From an uncultured Candidatus Saccharibacteria bacterium (GTDB taxonomy: Bacteria; Patescibacteriota; Minisyncoccia; Phycocordibacterales; UBA918), in the NCBI GenBank assembly GCA_964552045.1, contig CAZKFF010000008.1, positions 1-54,515 on the forward strand: a stretch of DNA of 54,515 bases. Direction: 5' to 3'. Positions 4,736-23,047 of the stretch are shown piece by piece. The notes below the pieces were generated by a model. It did no database searches and was not told where the DNA came from. It was given only the letters and a program-made list of their open reading frames with translations. Position 1 is the first letter of the stretch. Each line of letters begins with the position of its first letter. Both the position numbers and the translations under genes were made by a program.

Positions 4736-4736
4736 T

Positions 4737-5672: not shown

Positions 5673-5673
5673 C

Positions 5674-6955: not shown

Positions 6956-7023
6956 TTGCTTTTGTCAATAGAAAGCGTATACTTGAGTGGTGCTTCAGGG
7001 GGAAGCACAGAAAGGAGACTCAA

Positions 7024-7545: not shown

Positions 7546-7586
7546 TAACAACAAGGGTACACAGGGAAAAATGGCGTCACAACGCT

Positions 7587-7618
7587 GAGCCATGGTGCGT
7601 ACACACGTGCCATGGCTC
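7587..7618 (+). terminator. hairpin terminator
   Basis: GAGCCATGG..N14..CCATGGCTC followed by TTATTTT. Confidence 0.55.
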
Positions 7619-7643
7619 TTATTTTGTGTATAGCTCATATGAA

Positions 7644-7668
7644 CTGAAGTACTATTTCTGTACTTCAG
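7644..7668 (+). terminator. second perfect 9-bp hairpin (terminator or leader element)
   Basis: CTGAAGTAC-TATTTCT-GTACTTCAG. Confidence 0.35.
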
Positions 7669-7753
7669 AAGGTTGTTTGAAATTTTGCATAAACTATCAA
7701 CAACCTGTACAGCATCTGTAAGATGGACAGAGTCTGTAAGGTATACTGTATAT

Positions 7754-8050
7754 ATGAGCGAGATATTGCAAGCGAACATTTTCTTCGTGATCACAAGCGT
7801 CGCAGTGTTGGTATTCACATTGTTTGTCTGTGTCATTCTCTTCCACGTCATCAAGATCCTGAAGTCGATCCGAACGATCGTTTCTCGTGTTGAAGAAGGG
7901 AGCGAGCTGATAGCAGAAGACATGTCACAGCTGCGGAGCTATGTACTCGAAGGGAGTCTTGTCTCGCAGATAATGGGGTTTTTCCTCGGGAAGAGAGCGC
8001 GCAGAGCTCCTTCGCCGCGGAAGAGCAAGGACGTTACAAGTGAAGATTAA
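7754..8050 (+). CDS. small membrane protein with basic C-terminal tail
   Basis: ATG at 7754 in ORF 7673..8050. TM IFFVITSVAVLVFTLFVCVILFHVI. Confidence 0.5.
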   Translation: MSEILQANIFFVITSVAVLVFTLFVCVILFHVIKILKSIRTIVSRVEEGSELIAEDMSQLRSYVLEGSLVSQIMGFFLGKRARRAPSPRKSKDVTSED

Positions 8051-8060
8051 AAAATAAGAT

Positions 8061-8561
8061 ATGGCAAACAAAAAGTCAGATATTTCTAATGCACAAAAAC
8101 TCGGTATCGGTGTTGGTCTCACAACCGCAGCCGTCGCTGCAGTTGGTGCTTATTTTTTATACGGCAGCAAGGATGCGGCCAAGAACCGCAAGAAGGTGAA
8201 GAGCTGGGCATTGAAGGCAAAGGGAGAAGTGCTTGAAGCCCTGGAGAATGCCGAAAAGATAACGGAAGGCGAGTTTAGGGAACTTGTGGACGGGGTGGTT
8301 GCGACCTATGCCAAAGGTCAGAAGCTCACCAAGAGAGAACTTGCTGAGTTCAAGGCCGAGATGGCAGACAACTGGCAGGATCTTGTGAAGAGCGGCGTTA
8401 CTAAGGTATTCGGACAGACCGTCACCGCTTCAGTGGCAAAGAAGGCTCCGGCAAAAAGATCAGGTAAGAGTACACCAAAGAAGGCTTCTGCAAAAAAGGC
8501 TGCGAAAGCGCCTGCGAAAAAAGCATCAGCGAAGAAGGCTTCCGCAAAGAAAGCAGGTTAA
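8061..8561 (+). CDS. membrane-anchored YtxH-like protein with Lys/Ala-rich (histone-H1-like) C-terminal tail
   Basis: N-terminal TM LGIGVGLTTAAVAAVGAYFLYGS, a helical region, then AKKAPAKRSGKSTPKKASAKKAAKAPAKKASAKKASAKKAG. Confidence 0.6.
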   Translation: MANKKSDISNAQKLGIGVGLTTAAVAAVGAYFLYGSKDAAKNRKKVKSWALKAKGEVLEALENAEKITEGEFRELVDGVVATYAKGQKLTKRELAEFKAEMADNWQDLVKSGVTKVFGQTVTASVAKKAPAKRSGKSTPKKASAKKAAKAPAKKASAKKASAKKAG

Positions 8562-8574
8562 TGCACAGAAATGT

Positions 8575-8613
8575 AATAACGCGGCAGGCACCTTTGGTGC
8601 CTGCCGCGTTATT
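8575..8613 (+). terminator. intrinsic terminator (18-bp perfect stem)
   Basis: AATAACGCGGCAGGCACC-TTT-GGTGCCTGCCGCGTTATT. Confidence 0.8.
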
Positions 8614-9483
8614 ATGTGTGAGATGTTCAAGACCGCGCTCGGGCGCATCACTATTCTTTTTATTGTCATCGTAGCGTTCTGCTTCGGCATGCTCCTGATC
8701 GCCGCCTGGAGCGTTGAGGATGCGCTCAATTACACGCCGCAGCTCTCTGTGTCTTCCTTCGATGCCACGGCGTCGGATGCGGCAGCCTTTGTCGTATTCG
8801 ACCTCCAGAGCGGAACAGAGATCGCGTCACGCAATGCTTCAGAACTGCGGCCGATCGCTTCGCTCACGAAGCTCGTGGCAGCCTCGGTGTTTTATGAGCA
8901 CGCGGACATGCTCGCTTCAACGACCATCACCTTAGCTGATGTGCAAACCGAAAGCAGCGCAGGCAGGCTCGCATACGGAGAAGAGTATGGATACCACGAG
9001 CTGCTCTATCCGCTGCTGTTAGAGTCGTCCAATGACGCTGCATCGGTCATGCTGCGGGTTGAGCCGGAGCTTCTGTCGCTCATGAATGCCTATGCAGAAT
9101 CGCTTGGAGCATCCAATACTTATTTTTCTGACACATCGGGACTTTCCGCGGAGAATGTATCTACCGCGTATGAGCTTGCACTTATTGCCCGCGACCTCTA
9201 CGGCAAGGAACCGCACATATACGACATTACCCGCCTGCCGCAGTATATCGGTACGCATACAGGCTGGCTCAACAACAACCCATTTGTCAATGAAGAGGGA
9301 TACGTCGGCGGTAAGCATGGCTACACCTATGAGGCGAACCGCACGGGCATTTCATTCTTCAATGAAGTGCTTCAGAACGGCGCAGTGCGCACCATCGGCT
9401 ACGTCGTCCTCGGGAGTGCGGACCTGCACACAGATGTCGCTGCCTTGCGGGAAGAGGTGCACAAAAGCGTCTTCCTGCAGTGA
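8614..9483 (+). CDS. D-alanyl-D-alanine carboxypeptidase (serine peptidase S11, PBP5-like)
   Basis: SxxK (ASLTKL), SxN (ESSNDAA) and KxG-like (GGKHGYT) motifs, with an N-terminal TM. Confidence 0.8.
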   Translation: MCEMFKTALGRITILFIVIVAFCFGMLLIAAWSVEDALNYTPQLSVSSFDATASDAAAFVVFDLQSGTEIASRNASELRPIASLTKLVAASVFYEHADMLASTTITLADVQTESSAGRLAYGEEYGYHELLYPLLLESSNDAASVMLRVEPELLSLMNAYAESLGASNTYFSDTSGLSAENVSTAYELALIARDLYGKEPHIYDITRLPQYIGTHTGWLNNNPFVNEEGYVGGKHGYTYEANRTGISFFNEVLQNGAVRTIGYVVLGSADLHTDVAALREEVHKSVFLQ

Positions 9484-9492
9484 TGGTATACT
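9484..9492 (+). promoter_or_regulatory. putative extended -10 box (TGgTATACT) 9 nt upstream of the dnaX ATG
   Basis: TGGTATACT at 9484-9492 and ATG at 9502, with no SD between them. Confidence 0.4.
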
Positions 9493-9501
9493 AGGCTCTG
9501 T

Positions 9502-10536
9502 ATGACAGAAAATCTTGCCTTATACCGCAAATACCGTCCAACCTCATTTCAGGACGTTCGTGACCAGGAGCACATCGTATCGGTGCTCGAAGGAGCGATC
9601 AAGAAGAATACGATCCCGCACGCTATCCTTTTCTCGGGCTCCCGTGGGACCGGGAAGACCACGCTCGCGCGGCTGTTTGCCAAAGCCATTGGCGTCAGCG
9701 ATGTCGATATCTATGAGATAGATGCGGCGAGCAACCGTGGCATTGACGATGTGCGTGAGCTGAGCGAGGCGGTGTACACGCTTCCATATGAATCGGAACG
9801 GAAAGTGTACATTATCGACGAGGTCCATATGTTCACCAAGGAAGCGTTCAATGCGCTCCTGAAGACGCTCGAAGAACCGCCCGCGCATGTGGTCTTTATT
9901 TTGGCGACCACCGAAGAGGAAAAATTGCTTGATACGATCCTCTCACGCTGTCAGGTGTTCCGCATGCGTGCTCCCTCCCGCGCAGTGCTTGCACAGACTG
10001 TGACCGATGTCGCCAAGAAAGAAGGCTTTACGCTGTCGCCCGAAGCGGCTGACCTCATTGCGATAGCCGCCGATGGTTCGTTCCGCGATGCGCTCGGCGT
10101 CACACAAAAGGTCATTATGGCTTCGGGCGATGTGATCGGCAGCGCTGACGAGGTCGCTGCCATCATCGGAGCTCCGAAATCAGAAATGCTACGTATGTTA
10201 CTACAGGCGCTTCATGACAAGCATGCAGAACCAGCGCTTGAGGCTGTCGCCTGGGCGACAGCCTCGCACGCTGATATGAAGCTTTTCATGCGGCTCCTTC
10301 TTGAGCGTGTGCGGGCGGTTATGCTGCTGCGGAACATGCCGGGCAAGAAGGAAGATATCCTCGCTGCATTCAGTGAAGAGGATCGTACGGTACTCGCGCA
10401 GTTTGCGGAGAATGCGCAGTCTGCGCTCAATTCCAATCTGCTCCAGTTATTGCTTGAAGCTGCGCAGCAGACGGGGAAGACGGTTCTGTCGCAGCTTCCT
10501 CTGGAACTGGCGATCGTCGAGCACTGCAGAAAATAG
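9502..10536 (+). CDS. dnaX: DNA polymerase III subunit gamma/tau (short form)
   Basis: LYRKYRPTSFQDVRDQEH.., Walker A GSRGTGKTT, DEVHM, SRC motif. Confidence 0.9.
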   Translation: MTENLALYRKYRPTSFQDVRDQEHIVSVLEGAIKKNTIPHAILFSGSRGTGKTTLARLFAKAIGVSDVDIYEIDAASNRGIDDVRELSEAVYTLPYESERKVYIIDEVHMFTKEAFNALLKTLEEPPAHVVFILATTEEEKLLDTILSRCQVFRMRAPSRAVLAQTVTDVAKKEGFTLSPEAADLIAIAADGSFRDALGVTQKVIMASGDVIGSADEVAAIIGAPKSEMLRMLLQALHDKHAEPALEAVAWATASHADMKLFMRLLLERVRAVMLLRNMPGKKEDILAAFSEEDRTVLAQFAENAQSALNSNLLQLLLEAAQQTGKTVLSQLPLELAIVEHCRK

Positions 10537-10547
10537 TTAGATACAGT

Positions 10548-11183
10548 ATGAAACACGTGTATCTCACCCGGCATGGAGAAACGGTCGCCAACAGAAAATG
10601 GGTTCATCAGGGCCCCAGTGAGCCGCTGTCTGAGCTTGGACGCATGCAGGCGCAGAACGTCGCCCGATACTTCAAAGAGAAACCCATAGATATGCTTATG
10701 AGCAGCACATATCTGCGGGCGAGACAGACAGCTGAGATTGTGAGTGAGGAGCTGGCGCTTCCGTGCCTATTTGAAGACACCCTCAAGGAATTCCGCAGAC
10801 CCAACCATCTCTATGGCCGACGGCACTATTCGCCACAGTCTTTTCTGTACCTTGCGCGATTGTTCATCCACCAGGAGGATCCGCAGTGGGATGATGATGG
10901 CGCTGAGAATATGTTTACTGTGCGCAACCGGATACGGCAAGCGCGTGACATACTCGCGCAGGCGCAGGGAGAACATGTGATCGCGGTCTCGCATGCGATC
11001 TTCATGGATATGTTCATCGAGCTCGCCTGCAAAGAGAAGGATCTGACGCTTATGGAATACATCAGCGGGCTTATGGCATTCAAGAAGACGCCAAATACCG
11101 GTATTATTCACCTTTTCTTTGATGCGCAGGCACAGCCAGGGGTTTGTCCGTGGCAGCTGGTGGAATTCATTGACCCGCGGTAA
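10548..11183 (+). CDS. histidine phosphatase family protein (phosphoglycerate-mutase-like)
   Basis: VYLTRHGETVAN catalytic RHG motif and a later SH motif (VSHAIF). Confidence 0.8.
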   Translation: MKHVYLTRHGETVANRKWVHQGPSEPLSELGRMQAQNVARYFKEKPIDMLMSSTYLRARQTAEIVSEELALPCLFEDTLKEFRRPNHLYGRRHYSPQSFLYLARLFIHQEDPQWDDDGAENMFTVRNRIRQARDILAQAQGEHVIAVSHAIFMDMFIELACKEKDLTLMEYISGLMAFKKTPNTGIIHLFFDAQAQPGVCPWQLVEFIDPR

Positions 11184-11251
11184 GGGGAATTACTCTGCTT
11201 GATTTATCGTTGAAATTTGGCACTATAGTGCCACTGCGTGAGAGCGCATAT

Positions 11252-11322
11252 TGCCCGATCGTCTAATGGTAGGACTCTGGTTTCTGGCACCAGCTATCGA
11301 GGTTCGAATCCTTGTCGGGCAG
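11252..11322 (+). tRNA. tRNA-Gln (anticodon CUG)
   Basis: Hand-folded cloverleaf. Acceptor TGCCCGA/TCGGGCA, D arm GTCT-AATGGTA-GGAC, anticodon arm CTGGT-TTCTGGC-ACCAG, variable loop CTAT, T arm CGAGG-TTCGAAT-CCTTG, discriminator G. CCA is not encoded. Confidence 0.9.
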
Positions 11323-11475
11323 CAGCCATGTGAGACCGACCGAGACGCTGATTATAGAGGTTAGCAGTTCGCACCAGTCATGGGCACGAACTCGTCCAAG
11401 AAGTCAGCAGATCGGATCGTAATCTCCAGGTACTATTCCGAAATTGCATACCTGCTGAGAGCAGTATCCAGAAAA

Positions 11476-11500
11476 AACCACCCGAATGGGTGGTTTTTCT
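11476..11500 (+). terminator. intrinsic terminator
   Basis: ACCACCC-GAAT-GGGTGGT followed by TTTTTCT. It ends a ~150-nt non-coding stretch downstream of tRNA-Gln. Confidence 0.75.
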
Positions 11501-11516
11501 TTGCCTCAAAATTCGG

Positions 11517-11522
11517 TATAAT
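11517..11522 (+). promoter_or_regulatory. putative -10 box TATAAT 6 nt upstream of the ATG at 11529
   Basis: GGTATAATTTGGTCATG with no SD. Confidence 0.4.
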
Positions 11523-11528
11523 TTGGTC

Positions 11529-11957
11529 ATGAGAGTAACGAGACTCATTTCAAGATACTTCCTTCTTCTTGCCGTTTTCGCGTTCTTTTTCCTTGGCTTC
11601 CTTGGGCTCTCTCATACGAGTATGGCGATGGGGCAGGACGGGCAGATGAACTCGGGCAATTGCTTTATGCCTGGCATGACAGAAGCGCTCTGCCAGATGA
11701 ACCCACTTGAACACATCGCTTCATGGCAGAGCATGTTCACTGCAGTGCCGAGTCAGAGTGACATCATTTTGCTTCTTCTTGCCTTGCTCGCATTGGCACT
11801 TGGTGCACTCTTTTTGGCGCATCGCAGTTCTGCACCTCCGAGAGCGGTACCCGTATTGCAGCAAAAACTATCTTTATATTTCAAACAAAGGATTCCGATC
11901 GTACTCCCGCTTCAAGAAGCATTTTCTAACGGCATTCTAAACCCAAAGATTTTCTAA
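11529..11957 (+). CDS. small 2-TM protein with Met/Cys/His-rich loop and C-terminal GILNPKIF motif (unnamed family; paralog at 43562..43945)
   Basis: ATG at 11529 in ORF 11490..11957. TMs YFLLLAVFAFFFLGFLGL and IILLLLALLALALGALFLA. Loop NCFMPGMTEALCQMNPLEH. The C-terminus ..AFSNGILNPKIF matches ..LFTAGILNPKLF of the paralog. Confidence 0.65.
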   Translation: MRVTRLISRYFLLLAVFAFFFLGFLGLSHTSMAMGQDGQMNSGNCFMPGMTEALCQMNPLEHIASWQSMFTAVPSQSDIILLLLALLALALGALFLAHRSSAPPRAVPVLQQKLSLYFKQRIPIVLPLQEAFSNGILNPKIF

Positions 11958-12030
11958 ATACCGTTGCTCTCGTTCGCAAAAAATCGAGCGGTTTTTGCTA
12001 TTTATCAATTCTTAACTATATGCATCAATT

Positions 12031-12759
12031 ATGGAAGAACCATCAAAATCAAATCAATTATCAATCCCCATAGCTATTGTAATCGCCGGAGCATTGATCG
12101 CCGGCGCGGTCTATCTCGGCACATCAAAAGGCACAGAAACAGTTGCAGGAAACAATCAGCAACCCCAGCAGGTAGCACAGCAAACGGGCAGTCTTGATGA
12201 AATGAGAGCAATCTCAAAAGACGACCATGTTCGCGGCAATCCCGACGCTCCGGTCAAGATCGTCGAGTACTCGGATCCGGAATGTCCGTTCTGCAAACGA
12301 TTCCACGACACCATGAAGCAGGTCATGGACGAGTACGGTAAGGACGGAAAGGTTGCATGGGTCTACCGCAATTTTCCGCTCGACCAGCTCCACCAAAAAG
12401 CCCGCAACGAAGCGACAGCCATTGAATGCGCTGGCGATCTTGGGGGTAACGACAAGTTCTGGGCATATGCTGACCGGCTCTATGAAATAACTCCATCGAA
12501 TGACGGTCTTGACCCAGCAGAGCTTCCTAAGATTGCACAGTATGTAGGTCTTGATGTAAGCAAGTTCAACACTTGTCTCACCAGTGGTAAATTTACCAAG
12601 CATATCGAGGATGATGTACAAAATGCCATCGCTACCGGGGGCAATGGAACGCCGTGGAGTATTGTCGTTGCGGTCAATGGTAAAAAGTATCCGCTCTCCG
12701 GCGCACAGCCGTATGCATCGGTAAAACAGCTCATTGATCTGGCACTCTCGGAGAAATAA
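12031..12759 (+). CDS. DsbA-family thiol:disulfide oxidoreductase (membrane-anchored)
   Basis: N-terminal TM. Thioredoxin-fold active site YSDPECPFCKRFH. Confidence 0.85.
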   Translation: MEEPSKSNQLSIPIAIVIAGALIAGAVYLGTSKGTETVAGNNQQPQQVAQQTGSLDEMRAISKDDHVRGNPDAPVKIVEYSDPECPFCKRFHDTMKQVMDEYGKDGKVAWVYRNFPLDQLHQKARNEATAIECAGDLGGNDKFWAYADRLYEITPSNDGLDPAELPKIAQYVGLDVSKFNTCLTSGKFTKHIEDDVQNAIATGGNGTPWSIVVAVNGKKYPLSGAQPYASVKQLIDLALSEK

Positions 12760-12761
12760 CT

Positions 12762-13304
12762 ATGGTCATTCAAGCTCTGCAAAAAGTATTCCGGAAACCG
12801 CAGTATATAATCCTCGCCCTTGTCGTGAGCGCGGCGGTTTTCGCCTTTGCGGTTTGGCTTCCGAATCTTTCGCTTATCGTGAAGATCATGGGTCACCCGG
12901 GAATAACGTTTTCGCAGAAGCTTGATCTGCCGCTTAGTCTCTTGGGATCAATTGTCACTAACTTCACTTTGCTTTCCGCTTCGTACACGATCGCCATCGC
13001 ACTACTCTTTGGAGTAAACCTCGCTATGGCGATCTACTTCCTGAACCGAAAAATAAGTGAAGTAAAACAGGGCGGAATAACTACAGGATTTTTGGGTATA
13101 GCAAGTGGCGTGCTTGGTATGGGATGCGCCGCATGCGGTTCGTTCCTGCTCACGAGCGGACTCTCGCTCATTGGCGCATCCGGCATTCTTGTGTTCCTAC
13201 CGCTTGCCGGTTCTGAATTCGGCATCCTTGGAGTAATCTTGCTTTCGGTCTCGATCTACCTCACCGCAAAGCAAATCCAAAATCCTGCGGTCTGTAAAAT
13301 TTAA
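12762..13304 (+). CDS. polytopic membrane protein with intramembrane CxxC (GMGCAACGS), unknown family
   Basis: 180 aa with about 5 hydrophobic segments. Starts 3 nt after the DsbA-like stop. Confidence 0.6.
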   Translation: MVIQALQKVFRKPQYIILALVVSAAVFAFAVWLPNLSLIVKIMGHPGITFSQKLDLPLSLLGSIVTNFTLLSASYTIAIALLFGVNLAMAIYFLNRKISEVKQGGITTGFLGIASGVLGMGCAACGSFLLTSGLSLIGASGILVFLPLAGSEFGILGVILLSVSIYLTAKQIQNPAVCKI

Positions 13305-13315
13305 CCACTAAAATC

Positions 13316-13891
13316 ATGAATAAAAACTTACAAGTCTCAATCCTCATTGCCGTACTCCTTGTTGGAGGAGCACTGTATCTTGGGACATCAAAAAAGAATG
13401 GGGGTCCGCCACTTGCGGCTAACACGGCTCTTGCGGCGAAATTCGACGAGTTAAGTAAAAACGGCAATTCATCCTGCTCTGGCGCATTCAAAGATTCGAT
13501 AGACACGATGCCGGATACGGCACGGTTGCAAGGATCGTGTTGCTCTCCGATGGACATGCACCGCTATGAGGAGCAAGTCACTGGCTTGAAGAAATACAGT
13601 AACATTCCGGAGATCCCGTCGGACCCGTATGACATTGATGCAAAGCTGGCAAAAGATCTCAAAGCGTACTACGACGTAGAGCTTACTCCAGAACAGCAAG
13701 AAGCATACGACTATGCGATGGCTAATTCTGATGAGAAAGGCCCCTGCTGTTGCAAGTGCTGGAGATGGTACGTATACGGAGGCTTGGGCAAATTATTAAT
13801 CCAAAAATATAGCTTCACCGGCGAGCAAGTAACTGAAATCTGGAATCTGTCCGATGGTTGCGGAGGTGCCGGTGATCACGTAAATCACTAA
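13316..13891 (+). CDS. Cys-rich secreted protein, PCYCGC-motif-family-like
   Basis: Signal/anchor VSILIAVLLVGGALYLG. Motifs GSCCSPMDMH, GPCCCKCWRW (compare the PCYCGC motif) and DGCGGAGDHVNH. The family assignment is from memory of the motif only. Confidence 0.55.
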   Translation: MNKNLQVSILIAVLLVGGALYLGTSKKNGGPPLAANTALAAKFDELSKNGNSSCSGAFKDSIDTMPDTARLQGSCCSPMDMHRYEEQVTGLKKYSNIPEIPSDPYDIDAKLAKDLKAYYDVELTPEQQEAYDYAMANSDEKGPCCCKCWRWYVYGGLGKLLIQKYSFTGEQVTEIWNLSDGCGGAGDHVNH

Positions 13892-13892
13892 T

Positions 13893-14423
13893 ATGGAAGA
13901 ACAGACACAATTAACTAAAAAAGAACGTAAAGAATTAAACCGACAGGAAAAAATAGGGACAAAGGAAGCGGAAATGAAATCGCGCCATGCAAAGAAAGTC
14001 ATTACCCGAGTCGGATGGGGTACATTCGGCGTTGCTGTTGTAGCAGGCTTAATATGGCTTGTAGCTTCAGCTCCTAAAACCCCAGAAGGCGACATTCTCT
14101 CTCGCAACGGCTTTCATTGGCATCCGGAGGTCACGATCTACGTCAAAGGAGAGAAGCAGGAAATACCGGCAAACATCGGTATTGGAGCGGTTCATCAGCC
14201 GATCCATACTCACGACGATAGCAATCAAGGAATTGTGCATATGGAATTTCAGGGTCTGGTGAGAAAAGAGAATGCTACGCTTGGCCAGTTTCTTAAAAGC
14301 TGGGGTAAGGACATCAATTCATTCGGCACGAACGTGAAGATGACCGTCAATGGAGAGGAAAATACTGAATTGGAAACTTACGTCATGCAGGATAAAGACA
14401 AGATTGAGTTGCGTTACGAGTAG
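13893..14423 (+). CDS. membrane-anchored protein with HWHP / IHTHD His motifs, unknown function
   Basis: TM GTFGVAVVAGLIWLVA. Motifs GFHWHPEVTIYVKG..IPANIGIG..IHTHDDSNQGIVHME..TLGQFLKSWG. Starts 2 nt after the previous stop. Confidence 0.6.
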   Translation: MEEQTQLTKKERKELNRQEKIGTKEAEMKSRHAKKVITRVGWGTFGVAVVAGLIWLVASAPKTPEGDILSRNGFHWHPEVTIYVKGEKQEIPANIGIGAVHQPIHTHDDSNQGIVHMEFQGLVRKENATLGQFLKSWGKDINSFGTNVKMTVNGEENTELETYVMQDKDKIELRYE

Positions 14424-14441
14424 AGAAATGAACATGCTTGC

Positions 14442-14468
14442 GCAGTATACCCCTAGGGGGTATACTGC
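14442..14468 (+). promoter_or_regulatory. CsoR-type operator: 12-bp inverted repeat around a C4/G5 core, overlapping a TATACT -10 box
   Basis: GCAGTATACCCC-TAG-GGGGTATACTGC. The TATACT at 14461-14466 is 8 nt upstream of the csoR ATG at 14475. Confidence 0.7.
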
Positions 14469-14474
14469 TTGTAT

Positions 14475-14747
14475 ATGCGAAAAGATATCAAGTCAAAAAC
14501 CCTCCGCCGCCTTAAGCTCGTCGAGGGTCAGATTCGGGGAATTCAGAAGATGATTGAGGATGAGAAATATTGTGTCGATATCATTACTCAGTCGAGTGCG
14601 GCTAAGGAAGCTCTTTCTAGTATTGAACACTTAATTCTTGAGAACCATCTATCGACTCATGTTCTTGATTACATTAAGCATGGCAAGGAAAAGAAAGCTA
14701 TTGAGGAAATTCTAAAGGTCTATAAATTAGCACAAAAGAAAAGGTAA
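14475..14747 (+). CDS. csoR: CsoR/RcnR-family metal-sensing transcriptional repressor
   Basis: LRRLKLVEGQIRGIQKMIEDEKYCVDIITQSSAAKEAL..ENHL. Carries the Cys and His ligand positions typical of the family. Confidence 0.9.
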   Translation: MRKDIKSKTLRRLKLVEGQIRGIQKMIEDEKYCVDIITQSSAAKEALSSIEHLILENHLSTHVLDYIKHGKEKKAIEEILKVYKLAQKKR

Positions 14748-14751
14748 CAAC

Positions 14752-16857
14752 ATGCACGACCAAATAATACAAAAGAATATGTACACTTGCCCCATGCATC
14801 CGGAGGTGATGCAGGGAAACCCCGGTATGTGTCCGGAATGCGGTATGCAGTTGGTGCCTACAAAGAATAAAAAATCAGTCGGGCACGAGGGTCATGACAA
14901 ACACGCAGGCCATTCAACCCAGATGTTTTTCCGCAAATTTTGGGTAAGCCTTATTTTGACTATTCCGGTCGTGCTCTACGCCAAGGTTGTGGAGACTATT
15001 TTCAAGTGGTCGCCTCCTGCTTTCCCCGGATCAGACTATCTCCCTCTGATTCTCGGATCAGTTGTCTTTTTCTATGGCGGTTGGGTATTTCTTGCCGGTG
15101 CATGGCGAGAGATCAAAGGACGACTGCCTGGCATGATGACTCTCATAGCCATTGCTATTTCTGCCGCCTATCTCTGGAGCCTGTATGCGGTGTTTGCAGG
15201 AGCCGAGGCTCTGTTTTGGGAGCTTACAACTTTGATCACCATCATGCTTCTTGGACACTGGCTCGAAATGCGAGCAGTTTCCGGGGCACAGGGTGCGCTC
15301 AAGGAACTTTCAAAATTGCTCCCCGATACCGCGGAAGTAATCCGCAACGGAGTAACAATGACTATTCCGCTTTCCGAGCTTCGAGAGAACGATGTTGTAT
15401 TAGTAAAACCCGGAACGAAGATTCCGGCCGACGGATCAATTATTGACGGAGATTCTGACGTGAATGAATCAATGGTCACCGGAGAGTCCAAGCCGGTCTC
15501 CAAAAAACAGGGTGATGCGGTCATCGCAGGTACGATTAACGGCGACGGTGCGCTGAAAATTAAGGTTGCACAAATCGGCGAGAAGACATTTCTTGCCGGC
15601 GTTATGCGCTTGGTCGCCGAGGCGCAGGCTTCCAAATCGCGCCTGCAGATTCTTTCTGATCGGGCGGCTCTTTATCTCACCGTAGTCGCAGTCGGCGGAG
15701 GTATTATCACGCTCGTTGCCTGGCTTCTAGCCGGAGCCGATGTCGGTTTTGCGGTGGCTCGGCTCGTGGCCGTGCTCGTCATCGCCTGTCCGCATGCGCT
15801 TGGTTTGGCAGTCCCTCTTGTTGCATCAATCTCCACGACCAAAGCGGCACAGAATGGCTTTTTAGTAAAACAGCGTCTTTCTCTTGAAGCCGCTCGAACT
15901 GTTGATACGGTGCTTTTTGATAAAACAGGAACACTCACAAAGGGAGAGTTTGGAGTTGTAGAAGTATGGAGTGTCGCAGATCATTCTAAAGACGAGGTCG
16001 TAGAATTGGCCGCTTCCCTCGACGCCTTGTCGGAACATCCGATTGCTCGTGCTGTTGTAGCAAAAGCAAAAGAGCAAGGACTTGCTCTTAAAGACCCTAA
16101 GAAATTTGAAGCGATCAAGGGCAAGGGCGTCAAAGCAATGATCGATGAACAGGAAATAATGATCGGCGGACCGGCACTTCTTGAAGGTCTCAATATTTCT
16201 ATTCCCAGCGAATTATCCAAGCCAGTACAGGATGCAGGGAGAAAAGGCCAAACTATCATTTTTACTATCAGAGACAAAAAACTTCTGGGAGCAATCGCCC
16301 TTGCAGATATTATTCGAGAAGAATCACGTGAAGCTATTAAGTCACTCAAAGAAATGGGCGTGAAGTCGGCTATGATCACTGGTGATTCTGAAGATGTGGC
16401 CAAATGGGTTGCTTCCGAGCTTGGCATTGATGAGTATTTTGCCCGGGTACTTCCGCATCAAAAATCTGAAAAGGTAAAAGCATTGCAAGGCAGAGGTTTA
16501 AAGGTCGCTATGGTCGGCGATGGCATCAACGACGCCCCAGCCCTTACTCAAGCTGATCTCGGTATTGCCATCGGTGCAGGTACAAACGTCGCTATTGAAT
16601 CGGCCGGAATTATTCTTGTTCGCAACGATCCACGGGATATCGTAAAAATCGTCAGATTATCACAGATGACTTACACGAAGATGATCCAAAACCTCTTCTG
16701 GGCAACCGGCTACAACATTGTCGCACTACCACTTGCCGCCGGTGCACTTGCTTTCAAGGGTATTATTCTTGATCCAGCTATCGCCGCTGTGTTCATGTCA
16801 GCAAGTACGGTAATTGTGGCATTTAATGCTGTGCTTTTGAAAAGACGTAAATTATAA
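14752..16857 (+). CDS. copB: P1B-type copper-transporting ATPase, CPH (CopB-like) subtype
   Basis: N-terminal CPMHPE..CPECGM metal-binding module, His-rich SVGHEGHDKHAGHS, TM6 ACPHALGLAVP, DKTGTLT, GDGINDAP. Confidence 0.9.
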   Translation: MHDQIIQKNMYTCPMHPEVMQGNPGMCPECGMQLVPTKNKKSVGHEGHDKHAGHSTQMFFRKFWVSLILTIPVVLYAKVVETIFKWSPPAFPGSDYLPLILGSVVFFYGGWVFLAGAWREIKGRLPGMMTLIAIAISAAYLWSLYAVFAGAEALFWELTTLITIMLLGHWLEMRAVSGAQGALKELSKLLPDTAEVIRNGVTMTIPLSELRENDVVLVKPGTKIPADGSIIDGDSDVNESMVTGESKPVSKKQGDAVIAGTINGDGALKIKVAQIGEKTFLAGVMRLVAEAQASKSRLQILSDRAALYLTVVAVGGGIITLVAWLLAGADVGFAVARLVAVLVIACPHALGLAVPLVASISTTKAAQNGFLVKQRLSLEAARTVDTVLFDKTGTLTKGEFGVVEVWSVADHSKDEVVELAASLDALSEHPIARAVVAKAKEQGLALKDPKKFEAIKGKGVKAMIDEQEIMIGGPALLEGLNISIPSELSKPVQDAGRKGQTIIFTIRDKKLLGAIALADIIREESREAIKSLKEMGVKSAMITGDSEDVAKWVASELGIDEYFARVLPHQKSEKVKALQGRGLKVAMVGDGINDAPALTQADLGIAIGAGTNVAIESAGIILVRNDPRDIVKIVRLSQMTYTKMIQNLFWATGYNIVALPLAAGALAFKGIILDPAIAAVFMSASTVIVAFNAVLLKRRKL

Positions 16858-16869
16858 TTAACAAACTTT

Positions 16870-18447
16870 ATGAATAAAAAAAATCTTTACATTAGTCTCG
16901 GTATCGCAATAGTCGCCATAGGTGGAGCGTTTCTCTTTTCTCAGAATAATCCGTCCTCTTTGGTGCGGAGCGAATATGTTAGTGCGGATACATCCGGACT
17001 CTCTGAAGCTTCGGCAACACAGACCGTTGAGCTAAAGAATGGCGATACCTATGATCTCACTGCAAGCTATGTCAAAAAGAATATTAACGGCAAAGAGTAT
17101 CGGATGCTTGCGTACAACGGATCGATTCCGGGACCGCTTATTAAAATCGCCCAAGGAGCGGAAGTCACGATCAATTTCAAAAATGGCACTGATATGAATA
17201 CGCTTCTCCACTCGCACGGCGTCAGAATGGACAATGCGTTTGATGGATCGCAGACATCGCAAAAAGAAATGAAGCCGGGTGAGATTTTTTCTTACCAGAT
17301 CAAGTTTCCTGATGCCGGCATCTACTGGTATCACCCTCATGTCCGAGAAGACTTTGAGCAGGAGCTCGGGCTCTATGGAAACTACCTTGTAGTTCCCGGA
17401 GGTGCCGATTATTGGTCGCCGGTCAATCGTGAAGTTGCTCTGTTTCTGGATGACATTCTGATCGAGGATGGAACGATCGCTTTAAGCAAACAAGAAGCCG
17501 ACCGTACCCTCATGGGGAGATTCGGCAATGTCATGCTCGTAAACGGCGAGACTGATTACTCGCTATCTGCAAAAAGAAGCGAGGTTGTGAGACTCTATAT
17601 CACTAATTCAGCAAACACTAGACCATTTAATTTTGCTATAGAAGGAGCAAAAATGAAGCTGGTGGGAGCGGATGGCGGTGCATACGAAAAGGATCAATGG
17701 GCAGATTCAGTGACACTGGGACCGTCGGAGCGAGCTGTTGTTGAGGTATTGTTTGATACGACCGGCACGTTTGTGATTCAAAATAAGACACCAGATAAAA
17801 CCTACACGCTTGGCACGGTCAATGTCAGCACGGATTCTGTTGAGGTCTCTTATGCATCTGAGTTCAATCAACTCCGCACTCATGTAGAAACGTCTGAGAG
17901 CATTGCTCCATTCCGACAATATTTCGACAAAATACCGGACAAACAAATCAAGCTCTCCATCGACATGGGTGGAAACATGATGAATATGATGGGTGGCCAC
18001 ATGATGCCGGACGGCACGATGATGGGCGGCTCGATGATGAGTCCGGAAGGAGGTATTGAATGGGATGACGAAAACGAGATGATGAATCAAATGTCCGATT
18101 CCGATTCAGTCAAATGGAAAGTGGTGGATCAGGCAACCGGAAAAGAGAACATGGACATCGATTGGACATTCAAGCGTGGAGAGCCGGTCAAAATCAGGAT
18201 TTTCAATGATCCAAATTCAATGCACCCGATGCAACACCCGATGCATTTTCACGGCCAGCGGTTCCTAATCTTGGAGCGAAACGGTGTAAAAGAAACTAAT
18301 CTTGTATGGAAAGACACTGTCTTTATCCCTTCAGGCGAGACGGTGGATATTCTGCTCGACACTTCAAACCCGGGTACATGGATGGCGCACTGCCATATTG
18401 CCGAGCACTTGGAAGCGAGCATGATGATGAAATTCGAGGTTAAGTAG
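16870..18447 (+). CDS. multicopper oxidase with Met-rich insert
   Basis: Cu-ligand motifs HSHG, WYHPH, HPMHFHG and HCHIAEHLEASMM. Met-rich segment MGGNMMNMMGGHMMPDGTMMGGSMM. Confidence 0.9.
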   Translation: MNKKNLYISLGIAIVAIGGAFLFSQNNPSSLVRSEYVSADTSGLSEASATQTVELKNGDTYDLTASYVKKNINGKEYRMLAYNGSIPGPLIKIAQGAEVTINFKNGTDMNTLLHSHGVRMDNAFDGSQTSQKEMKPGEIFSYQIKFPDAGIYWYHPHVREDFEQELGLYGNYLVVPGGADYWSPVNREVALFLDDILIEDGTIALSKQEADRTLMGRFGNVMLVNGETDYSLSAKRSEVVRLYITNSANTRPFNFAIEGAKMKLVGADGGAYEKDQWADSVTLGPSERAVVEVLFDTTGTFVIQNKTPDKTYTLGTVNVSTDSVEVSYASEFNQLRTHVETSESIAPFRQYFDKIPDKQIKLSIDMGGNMMNMMGGHMMPDGTMMGGSMMSPEGGIEWDDENEMMNQMSDSDSVKWKVVDQATGKENMDIDWTFKRGEPVKIRIFNDPNSMHPMQHPMHFHGQRFLILERNGVKETNLVWKDTVFIPSGETVDILLDTSNPGTWMAHCHIAEHLEASMMMKFEVK

Positions 18448-18454
18448 CCATCGA

Positions 18455-18558
18455 GGGGATGTCTGGGATTCGAACCGGATCTGAAATAGATTCCGACTAT
18501 ATTTTAAGCCACACCAGTCATGTGCGACCGAGACGGTTCGAATCCTTTTGTGGCAGCA
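18455..18558 (+). other. tmRNA-5'-like motif plus tRNA-Gln-3'-half-like segment (relic or att-site scar; not a complete RNA gene)
   Basis: GGGGATGTCTGGGATTCGAACCGGAT resembles the start of ssrA. CACCAG-N17-GGTTCGAATCCTTTTGTGGCAGCA parallels the tRNA-Gln 3' half. No matching acceptor strand was found. Confidence 0.5.
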
Positions 18559-18689
18559 AAAGTAGGAGGTATCGAGTGATCAGGATGGGGCAATAAAATA
18601 TGAACATTTTGAACACCAGTTCGGATCATTGGATCTGTGACCCGTCTAAGTGCATTCCCTGAACCCATCGAAAGAACTATACTGTATCT

Positions 18690-19085
18690 ATGTTTACAAT
18701 TGATCAAATACAATCAGCACACAGCAAGGTAAAGAGCGGAGCAGATTTTCCTGCTTACGTGCAGGATCTCATCGCTCTGGGTGTGGAGAAATACCACACG
18801 TTCGTGACTGATGGCCACACTGAATATTTTGGTACGGATGATTACAAAGCAGCGTCTCCCGCAAAATATGTTCCGCTTGAGATCGCTGATCCAGAAAACA
18901 AGGAAAAATTTGTAGAGCGCCTCAAGCTTCACCAGCAAGGAGGAACCGACTATATGACGTTCTGTAAAGATGCTGCCGAAGCGGGAGTGGAAAAATGGAC
19001 AGTGGATACGATCAGGATGACGTGCACGTATTACGACACATCCGGGAAAGAAATGCTGGTTGAAGCCATTCCTGGAGTAAAGTGA
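18690..19085 (+). CDS. DUF1398-family protein
   Basis: MFTIDQIQSAHSKVKSGADFPAYVQDLIALGV..YMTFCKDAAEAGVEKW. TATACT lies 6 nt upstream of the ATG. Confidence 0.7.
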   Translation: MFTIDQIQSAHSKVKSGADFPAYVQDLIALGVEKYHTFVTDGHTEYFGTDDYKAASPAKYVPLEIADPENKEKFVERLKLHQQGGTDYMTFCKDAAEAGVEKWTVDTIRMTCTYYDTSGKEMLVEAIPGVK

Positions 19086-19183
19086 AGGAACAATGCGGAG
19101 GACTGGCAGTCACATGAAAAGCCCGAAAAGGCAGCTTTTTGTTTGGCTAAACAGCTAACCATCAACATGATATTGTTGTTTAT

Positions 19184-19384
19184 ATGGCACATATTTTAAA
19201 TAAGATGGTCGCACCGGTCGAAGCGGTGCGAAAGCAACTTGAAGAAGATAAAGAAGCGCATGCAGGACAAGGTATGTACCTCGAACATCTTTGGACAAAT
19301 GATGATGATCCAGACGAGGTATTTTTTCTTTTTCGTGTAGATGATATCAACCAGTGCAAGAATGCAATTGAGGAAGTGTACTAG
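19184..19384 (+). CDS. small hypothetical protein (possibly truncated by TAG at 19382)
   Basis: 66-aa ORF. The same frame stays open for 21 more codons after the TAG. Confidence 0.4.
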   Translation: MAHILNKMVAPVEAVRKQLEEDKEAHAGQGMYLEHLWTNDDDPDEVFFLFRVDDINQCKNAIEEVY

Positions 19385-19525
19385 AAGGCACGAGCAGAGA
19401 ATCCTGACGCAGTACTCCCTGAAAAGATCTATTTAAATGAGAACCTGTGATCGCCAGCATATCTGAGAAGGGTAAGATTCTGGATCCGAGCGCGGACAGT
19501 CCGGCATTTGTGCCATAATTTATCC

Positions 19526-20111
19526 ATGACCCAACCGGAAATAACAGAAAAGTCAGTTCGTTCCTTTACGACGGCACATGCTTGGCGTACCTGGCTCGAA
19601 AAAAAATCAAGGAAGAACAGATGGTGTTTGGCTGCGTATCTATAAAAAAGATTCAAGAAAAAAAACGGTCACATACGCTGAGGCACTTGACGAAGCGCTC
19701 TGCTACGGGTGGATAGACGGGCAAAGGAAAACGTACGATCCTGAATCCTTTTTGCAGAAGTTCACGCCCCGTCGGTCAAACAGCATGTGGTCGAAGCGGA
19801 ACCGTGAGCACGCCTTGCGTCTCATCAAAGAGAAACGCATGACTGCGGCTGGCCACGCTGAAATTGATGCCGCTCAAAAGGATGGACGATGGGAACAAGC
19901 ATATGACGCTCCCAGCACCATGACGATTCCAACGGATTTTCTCAAAACGCTAAAGAAGGACAAGAAAGCATACGAGTTTTTCAAGACCCTGAATAAGGCA
20001 AATACCTATGCCATTGCGTGGCGTCTGCAAACTGCACGCAAACCAGAGACGCGAGCGAAACGTATGGAATCGCTGTTCGCCATGATGAAAGAGGGAAAGA
20101 AATTGCATTAG
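19526..20111 (+). pseudogene. YdeI/OmpD-associated-family gene split by a +1 frameshift in an A8 run
   Basis: Frame A 19526..19645 gives MTQPEITEKSVRSFTTAHAWRTWLEKK.. then stops. Frame B (ORF 19578..20111) gives ..NQGRTDGVWLRIYKK..ALCYGWIDG... Removing one A from 19599-19606 gives a continuous WLEKNQGRTDGVWL. Confidence 0.7.
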
Positions 20112-20123
20112 CGTGGTAGCGAG

Positions 20124-20157
20124 AACATAAAAGCACCCGATCGGGTGCTTTTATGTT
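20124..20157. terminator. bidirectional palindromic terminator between convergent genes
   Basis: AACATAAAAGCACCCGATCGGGTGCTTTTATGTT, a perfect palindrome with A/T-rich flanks. Confidence 0.75.
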
Positions 20158-20164
20158 GACTGAA

Positions 20165-20914
20165 TTAGGCGAGGGTATTGCAATAGACGTGCATCGCATC
20201 GCGCATAAATTCAGGAAGATCGGGGTGGTACTTCTTGAAGGTTGCCGCGAAGCGCGGATCATCCACATACATGTTGGCAAGACCCCGATACAATTCAGGA
20301 TTTGGTTCGTAGAAGAACCGCAAGCCGTCGTAGTGTTTCGCTATCAGCGCTTGCACTTCAGGACTTTCCGCGCCGCTGCTCATATTTGCAACAATTTCTT
20401 TCAGGAGATCATCACCGGCTTTCTGCATCGCAGCCCGTTCTTCCTTCGTCAATTTTTCGTACTTTCCAACTGACTGCTTGAAAGCATCGGTGTCACCCCA
20501 GCGCTCTTTGGCTTCCTTGCTGTATGCCTCGTACTCTTCTTTGGTGAAGCCGCCATAGAGTTCTTTGTCGTGCATAGTTTTTTCCTTATTGATCTTTTTA
20601 ATCGTCTTATCAATCGTCTTCAGTAAGTCATTCATCCGCTTCTTTTTGATCTCGATCAGTTTCCGGTGATCTGCCAGAGCCGCGGTGAGGTCAAAGTGCG
20701 GATCAGCAAGTATGTGTTTTATTTCTTCGAGAGGGAACTCGAGTTCGCGAAAGAACATGATTTGCTGGAGCTTCAAGAGCTCTGCTTCGCCATACTGGCG
20801 ATAGCCGTTCTTCGCATTGCGGACAGGTTTCAGAAGCCCGATTGCATCATAGTGATGAAGTGTCCGAGTCGTTATGTCTGCGAGCGTCGCGAGTTGTTGA
20901 ACGGTGTATGTCAT
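20165..20914 (-). CDS. MerR-family transcriptional regulator with TipAS-like C-terminal domain
   Basis: MTYTVQQLATLADITTRTLHHYDAIGLL..GYRQY HTH, plus a ~140-aa C-terminal TipAS-like domain. Confidence 0.85.
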   Translation of the reverse strand: MTYTVQQLATLADITTRTLHHYDAIGLLKPVRNAKNGYRQYGEAELLKLQQIMFFRELEFPLEEIKHILADPHFDLTAALADHRKLIEIKKKRMNDLLKTIDKTIKKINKEKTMHDKELYGGFTKEEYEAYSKEAKERWGDTDAFKQSVGKYEKLTKEERAAMQKAGDDLLKEIVANMSSGAESPEVQALIAKHYDGLRFFYEPNPELYRGLANMYVDDPRFAATFKKYHPDLPEFMRDAMHVYCNTLA

Positions 20915-20957
20915 ATAACGTGCATGAGGACGATTGTGTATCGACCAACAGTAGCAG

Positions 20958-20988
20958 AGTCTAAACTATCACGCAACGTTAGAGTCAA
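20958..20988 (-). promoter_or_regulatory. MerR-type promoter with 19-bp spacer
   Basis: Minus strand reads TTGACT-CTAACGTTGCGTGATAGTT-TAGACT. The -35 is at 20988-20983 and the -10 at 20963-20958, 44 nt upstream of the merR-like ATG. Confidence 0.6.
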
Positions 20989-21069
20989 GTGATTGTGTAC
21001 TTCATACACTGTGGCAGGCAATCGAGGCAACTCATACTGAACAGTCAGCCGGTAGGTTACAATAAATTG

Positions 21070-21648
21070 ATGAAAAAAATAGTCATCGGAGTGATTGCTT
21101 TTGCTGTACTTCTTGCAGGGGCTTTGTATGTATTTAATGCATATATCTATGAGGTAAAGCAAGTGCCTGCATCCGGCGATTATAAAGACGGAGCGTATCG
21201 CATTGATGGCGTTCCGGTACAACTCAAAGACGGAATTTCTGAAATCGAAGCTGCGCCAGGGTCTGCTTCAAAGATCACCACTCGTTATTTTGGAAACGAA
21301 TATATGACTGACTTGGATAGCGATGGGCGGGAGGATGTTGTCTTTTTGGTAACGCAAGAAACAGGAGGGAGTGGGATTTTTTACTATGTTGTAGCTGCAC
21401 TTAATACAAAACGCGGATATGTTGGGTCTGATGCATATTTACTTGGTGATAGAATTGCCCCACAAACGATCGAAACGAGTTCCAATCCGCGACACAAGAA
21501 TGTGATAGTTGTGAACTATGCAAAGCATGCAGTGGACGAACCGATGTCTGCGCAACCTACAATCGGAACAAGCACCTATTTGAAGCTTGATGCCACCGAT
21601 ATGACATGGGGAATTGTCGAACCTCATTTCGAAGGAGAGTCGGGCTAA
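21070..21648 (+). CDS. hypothetical membrane-anchored or secreted protein
   Basis: ATG at 21070 in ORF 20989..21648. MKKIVIGVIAFAVLLAGALYVF. Divergent from the merR-like gene. Confidence 0.6.
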   Translation: MKKIVIGVIAFAVLLAGALYVFNAYIYEVKQVPASGDYKDGAYRIDGVPVQLKDGISEIEAAPGSASKITTRYFGNEYMTDLDSDGREDVVFLVTQETGGSGIFYYVVAALNTKRGYVGSDAYLLGDRIAPQTIETSSNPRHKNVIVVNYAKHAVDEPMSAQPTIGTSTYLKLDATDMTWGIVEPHFEGESG

Positions 21649-21780
21649 GTCTATAGAAAAGCTCTGACTTCAACAGGTTCCGTACAATCTCCTACTGAGA
21701 GACTGTCTCGTAGGCAATTTTTTGTGTGTCGGACGAGTCTGCACAAAAGATCAAAGCATCAATTCAAAATATGTATAATT

Positions 21781-22215
21781 ATGCATATGACAACACTAAA
21801 TCCCTGGATCAATTTCAACGGCAACGCAGAAGAAGCATTTATTTTTTACAAGTCAGTGTTTGGCGGCGAGTTTACAACAATAACCCGTTTTAAAGATCTC
21901 TCAGGACCAGAGTTTCAGGTTCCAGAAAAGGAAGGAGAGAAGATCATGCAGATCATTCTGCCGATAGGAAACGGCAATATGCTCATCGGTAACGATGTGC
22001 CTGAATTCATGGGGAAAGTCAACGAGAATGAGAACAGAAGCAAGATCCATATAGATACAGACAGTAAAGAAGAGGCTGAAAGAATATTCAACGGTCTTTC
22101 TGCCGGAGGGCAAGTCGAAGGGCCATTTGGCGACAGCCCGTGGGGAACATACGCAGCAATGTTTAGAGACAAATACGGTATTGAGTGGATCATAGAATGC
22201 AATCCGGCACACTAG
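21781..22215 (+). CDS. VOC-superfamily protein (PhnB/glyoxalase-like)
   Basis: LNPWINFNGNAEEAFIFYKSVFGGEF..SPWGTYAAMFRDKYGIEWII. Confidence 0.8.
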   Translation: MHMTTLNPWINFNGNAEEAFIFYKSVFGGEFTTITRFKDLSGPEFQVPEKEGEKIMQIILPIGNGNMLIGNDVPEFMGKVNENENRSKIHIDTDSKEEAERIFNGLSAGGQVEGPFGDSPWGTYAAMFRDKYGIEWIIECNPAH

Positions 22216-22331
22216 ACTTAAGTGAGTTTCAGTATGTCCCCGTCACTTGCAATAATGGGGGCTCGCTGTCGAGCGAGTCTCAATGTTTTGCATTGGAGTA
22301 TGCTCTTGGTGTCTGATGCACGACGCGATAT

Positions 22332-22940: not shown

Positions 22941-23047
22941 AAGGTCGCACAAAAGCACCTGTACCATTCGTCGGAAGTCTAGACAGATTTATTTTTTGTT
23001 GTATCATCCCACCGGATCAATTGAACAACGAAACAGGGAGTTGCTGC

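Follow-up and report, generated by a model that had tools for sequence, protein, structure and literature searches.

A copper and thiol gene module at a tRNA-Gln gene of an uncultured Saccharibacteria bacterium: a probable member of a site-specific element family of Patescibacteria

By description, the closest known system to the locus analyzed here appears to be the ssrA-specific island array of Dehalococcoides, in which islands lie in tandem downstream of a tDNA and each is bounded by the gene or by a short direct repeat of its 3′ end (McMurdie et al. 2011, PMC3146451). In that system, a conserved motif that cannot be aligned to the gene stands 5′ of each repeat, a CcrB-like serine recombinase of ~540 amino acids is encoded on the reverse strand beside attL, and cargo-only islands were read as cis-mobilizable elements that move by accretion (PMC3146451). 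The present locus occupies positions 11324-18558 of a 54.5-kb contig (54,515 nucleotides; CAZKFF010000008.1) of an uncultured Candidatus Saccharibacteria bacterium; this entire contig was analyzed and is referred to as the window. The locus is a ~7.2-kb module of copper and thiol genes directly 3′ of a tRNA-Gln(CUG) gene, and it is quite probably one module of a Patescibacteria family of site-specific elements located at the 3′ boundaries of tRNA-Gln, and occasionally tRNA-Ser, genes. Confidence is high that it is a discrete module and that it is mobile. The window copy is best filed as a non-autonomous, CIME-like (see below) member of a new tRNA-Gln element family associated with large serine recombinases (LSRs); the kind of system is already known, and the host phylum, target, repeat unit, and cargo are new.

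The family shares with the Dehalococcoides islands its tandem arrays at tDNAs, its repeats, a motif 5′ of each repeat, a serine recombinase, and cargo-only modules. However, the target here is tRNA-Gln (or tRNA-Ser) and the hosts are Patescibacteria; in cargo-bearing members, the LSR lies on the far side of the cargo and is accompanied by linked terminase and methylase genes; and the repeat is a ~65-nt unit with a consensus of its own, accompanied by copper and thiol genes rather than dehalogenases. Tycheposons of Prochlorococcus may be a second analogue: 910 of 937 carry tyrosine recombinases, often with replication genes, some members resemble phage-inducible chromosomal islands (PICI) with terS, and large serine recombinases are confined to a minority (Hackl et al., bioRxiv 10.1101/2020.12.28.424599). 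Both are cargo elements of streamlined genomes that lie at tRNA genes and are flanked by partial tRNAs, and in both newer insertions push older ones outward while degraded remnants persist; in contrast, tycheposon recombinases are mostly of the tyrosine type. The likeness drawn here is one of description. Cis-mobilizable elements (CIMEs) are att-flanked modules that encode neither recombination nor transfer functions. The window module likewise has both att-type ends without recombination or transfer genes; its mobilization is putative, and the resident genome lacks a cognate LSR, its three LSRs being 35-38% identical to the cognate type. The concept of CIMEs and of accretion and mobilization, developed for integrative and conjugative elements and integrative and mobilizable elements, is cited in PMC3146451. 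Finally, Islander-type tDNA islands (PMC4383910) are defined around tyrosine integrases that split the gene, with a regenerated target gene and a displaced fragment marking the island endpoints. The endpoints here are marked in a similar way, but the tRNA is apparently unsplit, exchange would take place at its last bases or beyond them, and the island contains no integrase.

Ends of the module

The window's genome (G000; 926 kb, 13 contigs, 51.8% G+C) was compared with a genus set of at least 128 species representatives, whose core proteins are ~70-75% identical to its own (G-numbers denote genomes, L-numbers loci). Relatives reached via the DnaX-like protein are metagenome-assembled genomes (MAGs) labelled Patescibacteria, Paceibacteria, or 'Kaiserbacteria'. 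As in other tDNA islands, an intact tRNA gene stands at one end of the module: tRNA-Gln(CUG) extends from 11252 to 11323 on the + strand according to ARAGORN, and from 11252 to 11322 according to Rfam (RF00005, 56.4 bits). With its 3′ end (GGTTCGAATCC...GGCAGC), the gene supplies the chromosomal side (B arm) of attL, the left junction. Next to it, at 11324-11419 (+), lies a stretch termed 'class B', the sole genuine match to its nhmmer profile in the genome (E = 1.4e-14). At the other end, the sole 'unit' of the genome (18491-18558, +; nhmmer E = 7.9e-18) comprises a P arm and a mimic of the tRNA-Gln 3′ half that ends in GGCAGCA. With exactly one unit and one class B stretch found by profile searches, the window therefore holds a single module, and the original prediction placed its boundaries correctly.

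The repeat itself is above chance and tRNA-specific. Positions 18535-18558 agree with the tRNA 3′ end at 21/24 positions, a second match was obtained in 0/100 shuffles, and its best partner among the genome's 40 tRNAs is tRNA-Gln(CUG), with a local score of 18 compared to at most 14 for the rest, so that the similarity exceeds that to unrelated tRNAs. However, the far copy had been taken for a diverged, displaced copy of the 3′ half of the resident tRNA, and in this respect the prediction has to be revised: the copy is element-borne rather than displaced. Units of the family share a layout of an A/T-rich box, ...GACCGAGACG, GGTTCGARTCC, a short variable stretch, and GCGGCAGC, and the window unit is 1 nt from the family consensus of the tRNA-like part. 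The ~40 nt upstream part is 85% identical in G147, and the acceptor strand of the unit mispairs with the resident tRNA 5′ strand at 2/7 positions. Because the unit fits the family consensus and mispairs with the resident 5′ strand, it arrived with the element, and the exchange point must then be within or 3′ of the common GGCAGCA. Judged by these features, the unit is to be regarded as the putative attR of the module and not as a decayed tRNA copy.

G+C content drops from 54.2% (1-11323) to 47.4% (11324-18558), and the left boundary is thus a real compositional step; it is 45.7% in 18559-23020 and 52.6% in 23021-54515. Hence, the A+T-rich block of the original prediction holds at its left edge, but low G+C runs on to 23.0 kb. 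Of 1674 genome-wide 7.2-kb segments, 48 are equally low in G+C, and 11 of these 48 belong to this region. Both the composition (47.4% against 51.8% for the genome) and the sporadic distribution (the multicopper oxidase is present in 36/128 genus genomes) are those of a tDNA island.

Relatives, arrays, and metagenome copies

The left flank, consisting of genes for a penicillin-binding protein (PBP), dnaX, a histidine phosphatase (HisPhos), and tRNA-Gln(CUG), is conserved in 13 same-genus loci, and nothing is conserved downstream. Gene order is thus not the same in all relatives, although copper genes do stand at the same tRNA in G019 and G089. Members of the island family are found at tRNA-Gln(CUG) in G000, G019, and G089; at tRNA-Gln(UUG), with another conserved upstream flank, in G007, G047, and G053; and at tRNA-Ser(GCU) in G087. 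The upstream flank of the other tRNA-Gln in G007 and G047 is also present on contig C6 of the window's genome. G089 has an orthologous island at the tRNA-Gln(CUG) locus and G007 and G047 have theirs at the other tRNA-Gln, with protein identities of 61-68%. Between G007 and G047, a stretch of 8966 bp that begins at the tRNA, spans the island, and reaches into a recombinase gene has 99.05% identity, compared with 79-83% in the flanks; similarly, G070 and G127 are 99.4% identical over 9.5 kb. By their sequence, these near-identical blocks are to be read as recent transfer. A ranking of identities was rejected as a proxy for phylogeny, with G019, G007, and G089 equally distant in core genes; the incongruence argument is accordingly weak, and the case for transfer rests on the 99% blocks.

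Metagenome data place the module in a further context. Run X5, a soil metagenome of a different study, covers only 11318-18479 of window positions 9000-25000, with one base difference and neither flank. In a 5.4-kb contig of this run, 18551 is joined back to 11318 and exactly 7 letters (GGCAGCA) fit both sides; on the unit side, the contig continues for 39 nt in the unit and then for ~2.9 kb in sequence that does not resemble the window. Therefore, the same module lies behind a unit in another context, with the junction at the predicted core. The module had been called fixed or decayed, which is apt insofar as the copy is non-autonomous, but the near-identical X5 copy in another context shows recent movement. 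Run X7, from a third study, contains the left arm and 13990-18407 in a variant form with 91-95% identity, and here too the flanks are missing; Logan contigs of run X3 independently span the unit into the right flank (17069-18627). A second X3 joint, from 11469 to 20122, has 32 nt on one side and a 4-nt overlap, and was not trusted. Where compared with the window, runs X7-X20 (11-14% of words) represent diverged relatives or conserved ATPase and oxidase pieces; they were not used for habitat or presence.

Arrays in relatives repeat the arrangement. In G097 (two), G042 (four), G105, G066, G004, and G061, units with the strand orientation of tRNA-Gln(CUG) are found 1.3-23 kb past it. Class B sequence follows the tRNA-Gln 3′ end or a unit in these six genomes and in G019, and the sequence past terminal units is unrelated. 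Repeated insertion is expected to give such a pattern, in which the tRNA plus left arm would be attL, a unit plus left arm an attP-like internal junction, and a unit plus flank attR. Tandem repeat-bounded arrays with a conserved non-tDNA motif 5′ of each repeat are present in G097 and G042, as borne out by the unit alignment, and the window has a single module. Class B is an element-borne conserved sequence that includes a decayed tRNA-like piece and is probably a cargo-less mini-module; the sequence at 11324-11520 folds better than shuffles (z = -4.8). In JGI metagenome contigs, the exact 46-nt unit had 0 matches.

The left-arm leader of the copper module (11431-11503, +) contains a 21-nt motif, GCATACCTGCTGAGAGCAGTA (11446-11466), and an intrinsic-terminator hairpin, and is conserved in G019, G007, G047, and G089. 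The exact 21-mer was found in at least 120 metagenome contigs, 80 of which were fetched for context (loci L149-L228). In these, it lies 50-1221 nt past tRNA-Gln in 47 contigs (within 252 nt in 46), after tRNA-Ser in 2, and after a unit in 6, and the cargo 3′ of it differs: CsoR-CopB, DsbA-p180, a MerR-type regulator, or none. The 21-mer, which could be a recombinase or recombination directionality factor site, or a small RNA hairpin, is much better conserved than the surrounding DNA, and the DnaX proteins of its hosts are merely 44-72% identical.

The candidate recombinase and competing explanations

Neither PF00589 nor PF00239 has a match in the contig, and tblastn with four LSRs returned nothing below E = 0.1 in the window. 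As predicted from the start, the window is thus devoid of a tyrosine or serine recombinase or a detectable remnant of one, and it also has no LSR or terminase pseudogene. With both ends but no recombinase, the module would move only with a cognate LSR in trans or by accretion with a neighboring element. The word 'classic' in the original prediction implied the tyrosine type; the likelier recombinase family is the large serine one. Tyrosine recombinases amount to essentially one Xer-like gene per genus genome, none of them near tRNA-Gln, whereas LSRs are found in 95/128 congeners. The window's genome has three LSR genes (C2:364-1981, C6:16134-18164, and C6:98674-100274), antisense and ending inside the 3′ ends of tRNA-His, tmRNA, or tRNA-Glu, and serine integrases that target tDNAs appear to be the rule here; two of the three have low-G+C DNA behind them.

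At tRNA-Gln, an LSR ends antisense inside the tRNA 3′ end in G022, G066, and G112 and ends beside a partial tRNA-Gln copy in G110; in G022 and G066 a partial tRNA copy is also found 4.7-6.1 kb away. A distinct LSR type, 35-38% identical to the three of G000 and accompanied by TerL, TerS, and a DNA methylase, stands convergent at the distal cargo end in G007, G070, G087, G022, G127, G073, G097, G042, and G147, and this cognate (G007) type is absent from the window's genome. One module of G042, ~15.7 kb long and with an LSR, has a unit on either side. A convergent LSR of this type is present in 19/37 metagenome contigs with at least 3 kb past the 21-nt motif and in 9/15 with at least 7 kb, and in cargo-less minimal elements its stop codon is ~55 nt past the motif. 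Thus, a reverse-strand LSR by the tDNA junction, as in Dehalococcoides, is absent from the window and is found in relatives, in metagenome contigs of the same family, and at three other tDNAs of the window's genome. With moderate confidence, the sequence associations make the LSR the leading candidate enzyme for the element family.

A complete element would consist of the tRNA 3′ end, the left arm with the 21-nt motif, variable cargo, and convergent LSR and terminase/methylase genes, and its right end, known from G042 alone, would be a unit mimicking the tRNA-Gln 3′ half. The resident tRNA would stay intact if strands were exchanged within the common GGCAGCA or directly 3′ of it, and repeated insertion would yield arrays of tRNA, module, unit, module, and unit. 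Methylase-TerS-TerL-LSR cassettes (L036:1-3733, L047:10827-15999, L139:7556-12923, and L143:13592-18943) stand beside variable cargo, such as copper genes, a HerA-like helicase pair, and Abi; they resemble a phage satellite rather than a full prophage, with no capsid or tail genes recognised. In G007, a CBASS-like SMODS/AGS-C gene (L045:15182-16534) adjoins the cassette, and in G022 a LOOT RNA (RF03000, 66 bits; L054:3695-3803) lies within a 4.7-kb LSR element at tRNA-Gln(UUG).

Three other explanations were weighed. The absence of any dedicated recombinase, with the module spread by natural transformation and homologous recombination anchored on the tRNA, the 21-nt motif, and the units, is improbable; the LSR and terminase genes would then be neighboring prophage or satellite remnants at the same hotspot. 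The 99% block of G007 and G047 does start at the conserved tRNA, many arrays are without any LSR, and type IV pilus and pilin genes are nearby. Against it stand a junction exactly at the 7-nt core, the same module behind three different tRNAs and behind units, the strong tie of the motif to a convergent LSR in 19/37 contigs, and the LSR stop codon ~55 nt past the motif in minimal elements. We consider it doubtful in the extreme that this is a classical tyrosine-integrase island whose far copy is a displaced, decayed tRNA-Gln 3′ end and whose integrase was deleted. Such an island would show the intact tRNA and the 21/24 direct repeat, and perfect 45-55-nt duplications from the anticodon or D arm beside tRNA-Gln in G006 and G004 have the geometry typical of tyrosine integrases; yet each genus genome has essentially one Xer-like gene, none of them near a tRNA-Gln, and the copy is closer to the element-borne consensus than to the resident tRNA, recurs with its upstream ~40 nt in other species, and mispairs with the resident acceptor strand.

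Hardly credible at all is an ancestral cluster that was never inserted, with low G+C due to membrane and secreted proteins and with the tRNA-like element acting as a terminator or regulatory RNA. It is in line with the copper genes past the same tRNA in G019 and G089, with a divergence of the island proteins similar to that of core proteins (61-68% against 60-75%), and with the lack of a G+C change at 18558. In contrast, the oxidase occurs in just 36/128 congeners, gene order varies among relatives, the island is also at other tDNAs, the fold of 18448-18575, considered as a structured RNA, has no more stability than those of shuffles (z = -0.1), and near-identical copies across species and studies, without flanks, already contradict it.

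The site-specific module reading, which remains the preferred one, has several points against it. Recombination itself was not directly observed, and the X5 junction is contig data and of the array type, not a circle. An empty site, with the tRNA followed by the 18.56-kb flank, had been proposed as a check; none turned up at 14 loci, among the five closest MAGs, or via the DUF1398 gene described below. The compositional anomaly is moderate (the tetranucleotide distance to the genome puts 11490-18490 at the 96th percentile and the block after it at the 90th) and does not end at 18558, where G+C is flat before it rises at ~23.0 kb. An LSR module between two units was seen in G042 only, the unit-bearing arrays of G004, G061, G066, and G105 have no LSR nearby, and the far ends of the LSR-bearing copper loci of G007 and G087 showed no unit or tRNA repeat in the 20-30 kb read. 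Finally, serine integrases usually need just a 2-bp common core, and a long tRNA mimic is unexpected for them.

Cargo, neighboring sequence, and significance

The gene content is as originally described, with eight intact thiol and copper open reading frames, all on the + strand, identified by Pfam and motif reading. The first (11529-11957) encodes a small protein with two transmembrane (TM) segments and the C-terminus GILNPKIF; it has no Pfam family, and homologues lie alongside copper genes in G019, G087, G070, G022, G053, and G054. It is followed by a membrane-anchored DsbA-like thiol-disulfide oxidoreductase with a CPFC motif (12031-12759; Pfam Thioredoxin_4 8e-27, DSBA 7e-14) and by a 5-TM protein, p180, with CAAC (12762-13304; assigned by motif and synteny). 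This gene pair is kept in G019, G006, G002, G007, G089, G087, and G073, and the 5-TM protein may be a redox partner of the constantly adjoining DsbA-like protein. A secreted or anchored Cys-rich protein (CC...CCCKC; 13316-13891) has no family and no homologue in the relatives' loci, and an anchored His-motif protein (HWHP, HQPIHTHD; 13893-14423), also without a Pfam family, has 52% identical homologues within the islands of G007, G047, and G089.

The copper genes proper begin with csoR (14469-14747), for a CsoR-family copper-sensing repressor (Pfam Trns_repr_metal 2.7e-25). Directly 5′ of it, a perfect palindrome (CAGTATACCCC TAG GGGGTATACTG; 14443-14467) was read from the sequence and is a candidate CsoR operator, given the function of the CsoR family. 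Downstream are a CopB-like P1B-type ATPase (14752-16857; Pfam E1-E2_ATPase 1.6e-53, Hydrolase 3e-37, HMBD 1.4e-8), with an N-terminal CxxC/His-rich metal-binding region and a transmembrane CPH motif at residue 346, and a secreted three-domain multicopper oxidase (16870-18447; Pfam Cu-oxidase, Cu-oxidase_2, Cu-oxidase_3). The repressor, the CPx-type ATPase, and the oxidase are the components of a CsoR-regulated copper efflux operon, identified here by Pfam matches that exceed the cut-offs and by the CPH motif. CsoR and the palindromic operator would control the efflux ATPase and the oxidase, with Cu(I) freeing CsoR from the palindrome and thereby inducing both. The DsbA-like, 5-TM CxxC, and Cys- and His-rich exported proteins encoded 5′ of csoR plausibly serve in metal handling and in the upkeep or repair of extracytoplasmic thiols. 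The locus thus resembles known CsoR-CopA/CopB-multicopper oxidase operons in its CsoR-family repressor, palindromic operator with a G/C tract, P1B ATPase, and three-domain oxidase; unlike them, it is coupled to a five-gene extracytoplasmic thiol/His module, in which 4/5 genes have no Pfam family. Copper resistance is the phenotype that these protein families predict for the cargo.

Additional copper and thiol loci are present in the window at 43562-46798 and 48786-49469; one locus combines a GILNPK-type 2-TM paralogue, a 229-aa open reading frame unmatched in Pfam, a fusion of CopC and CopD, and a second DsbA-like gene. Elsewhere in the genome, a paralogous multicopper oxidase lies between tRNA-Ser(UGA) and tRNA-Arg (C7:14297-19011). 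Outside the module, the accessory block at 18559-23020 encodes DUF1398 and OmdA/YdeI-like proteins, a MerR/TipAS regulator, p219, a glyoxalase-fold protein, and p202. Its DUF1398 gene (18690-19085) has no homologue in the 127 other genus genomes, and homologues of p219 and the glyoxalase-fold protein are cargo near LSR elements in G042 and G007. Profile searches found no unit or class B in this block, nor was an additional tRNA-like copy found where G+C rises at 23.0 kb; probably, this is older cargo that has lost its ends. Counterparts of a DsbB-like gene (24367-25155) stand 1.5-7 kb past tRNA-Gln in G018 and G054 and directly outside an LSR element in G066, which suggests that the native flank resumes near 23-24 kb.

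Other small features were noted around the tRNA genes. An inverted copy of the T-arm motif (18466-18477, - strand) pairs with 18534-18545 as a 12-bp inverted repeat in the centroid fold. In an Rfam search of 11-24 kb, the tRNA alone was genuine and an RNAI match was merely the terminator hairpin. Extra partial tRNA-Gln 3′ copies lie beyond the tRNA in many relatives. A 'class A' element (G000 C6:63041-63185; L022, L026, L027, L029, L031, L051, L054, L057, L140, and L141) consists of ~170 nt conserved directly after tRNA-Gln genes, sometimes in tandem. Its order is a terminator hairpin, a hairpin-split inverted tRNA 3′-end copy, a second hairpin, ...CTGTAAG..., and a direct copy that equals the 3′ end of the host species' own tRNA. 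Like the unit, it has no Rfam family, and it could be native flank, a miniature element, or a structured RNA. Additionally, the acceptor-stem types TGCCCGA/TCGGGCA and TGGGGTA/TACCCCA are swapped between the CUG and UUG loci (G000, G007, G047, and G089), which may be a trace of recombination or replacement at tRNA-Gln tDNAs.

A more far-reaching idea is that a serine recombinase makes the tRNA-Gln 3′ flank into a cassette platform comparable to an integron. Modules of 1-7 kb with cargo only, each with a left arm and a ~65-nt tRNA-mimic unit in the role of attC, would be captured, stacked, and shuffled in trans by a phage-satellite-like LSR/terminase element. No IntI-type tyrosine recombinase, as in integrons, stands beside the array, and we regard this idea as tentative and rather unlikely. 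If it were true, ultra-small genomes could draw on a common pool from which cassettes for copper resistance, defence, and surface proteins are exchanged.

The genomes of Patescibacteria (also known as the candidate phyla radiation, CPR) are minimal and are believed to contain few mobile elements. At this locus, a complete copper and thiol homeostasis package moves as a discrete cassette between species and soils. The locus also points to a widespread LSR element family that targets tRNA-Gln and has the 21-nt motif as its hallmark. If the att sequences and recombinase candidates work, they could provide integration tools for organisms that are currently without genetics.

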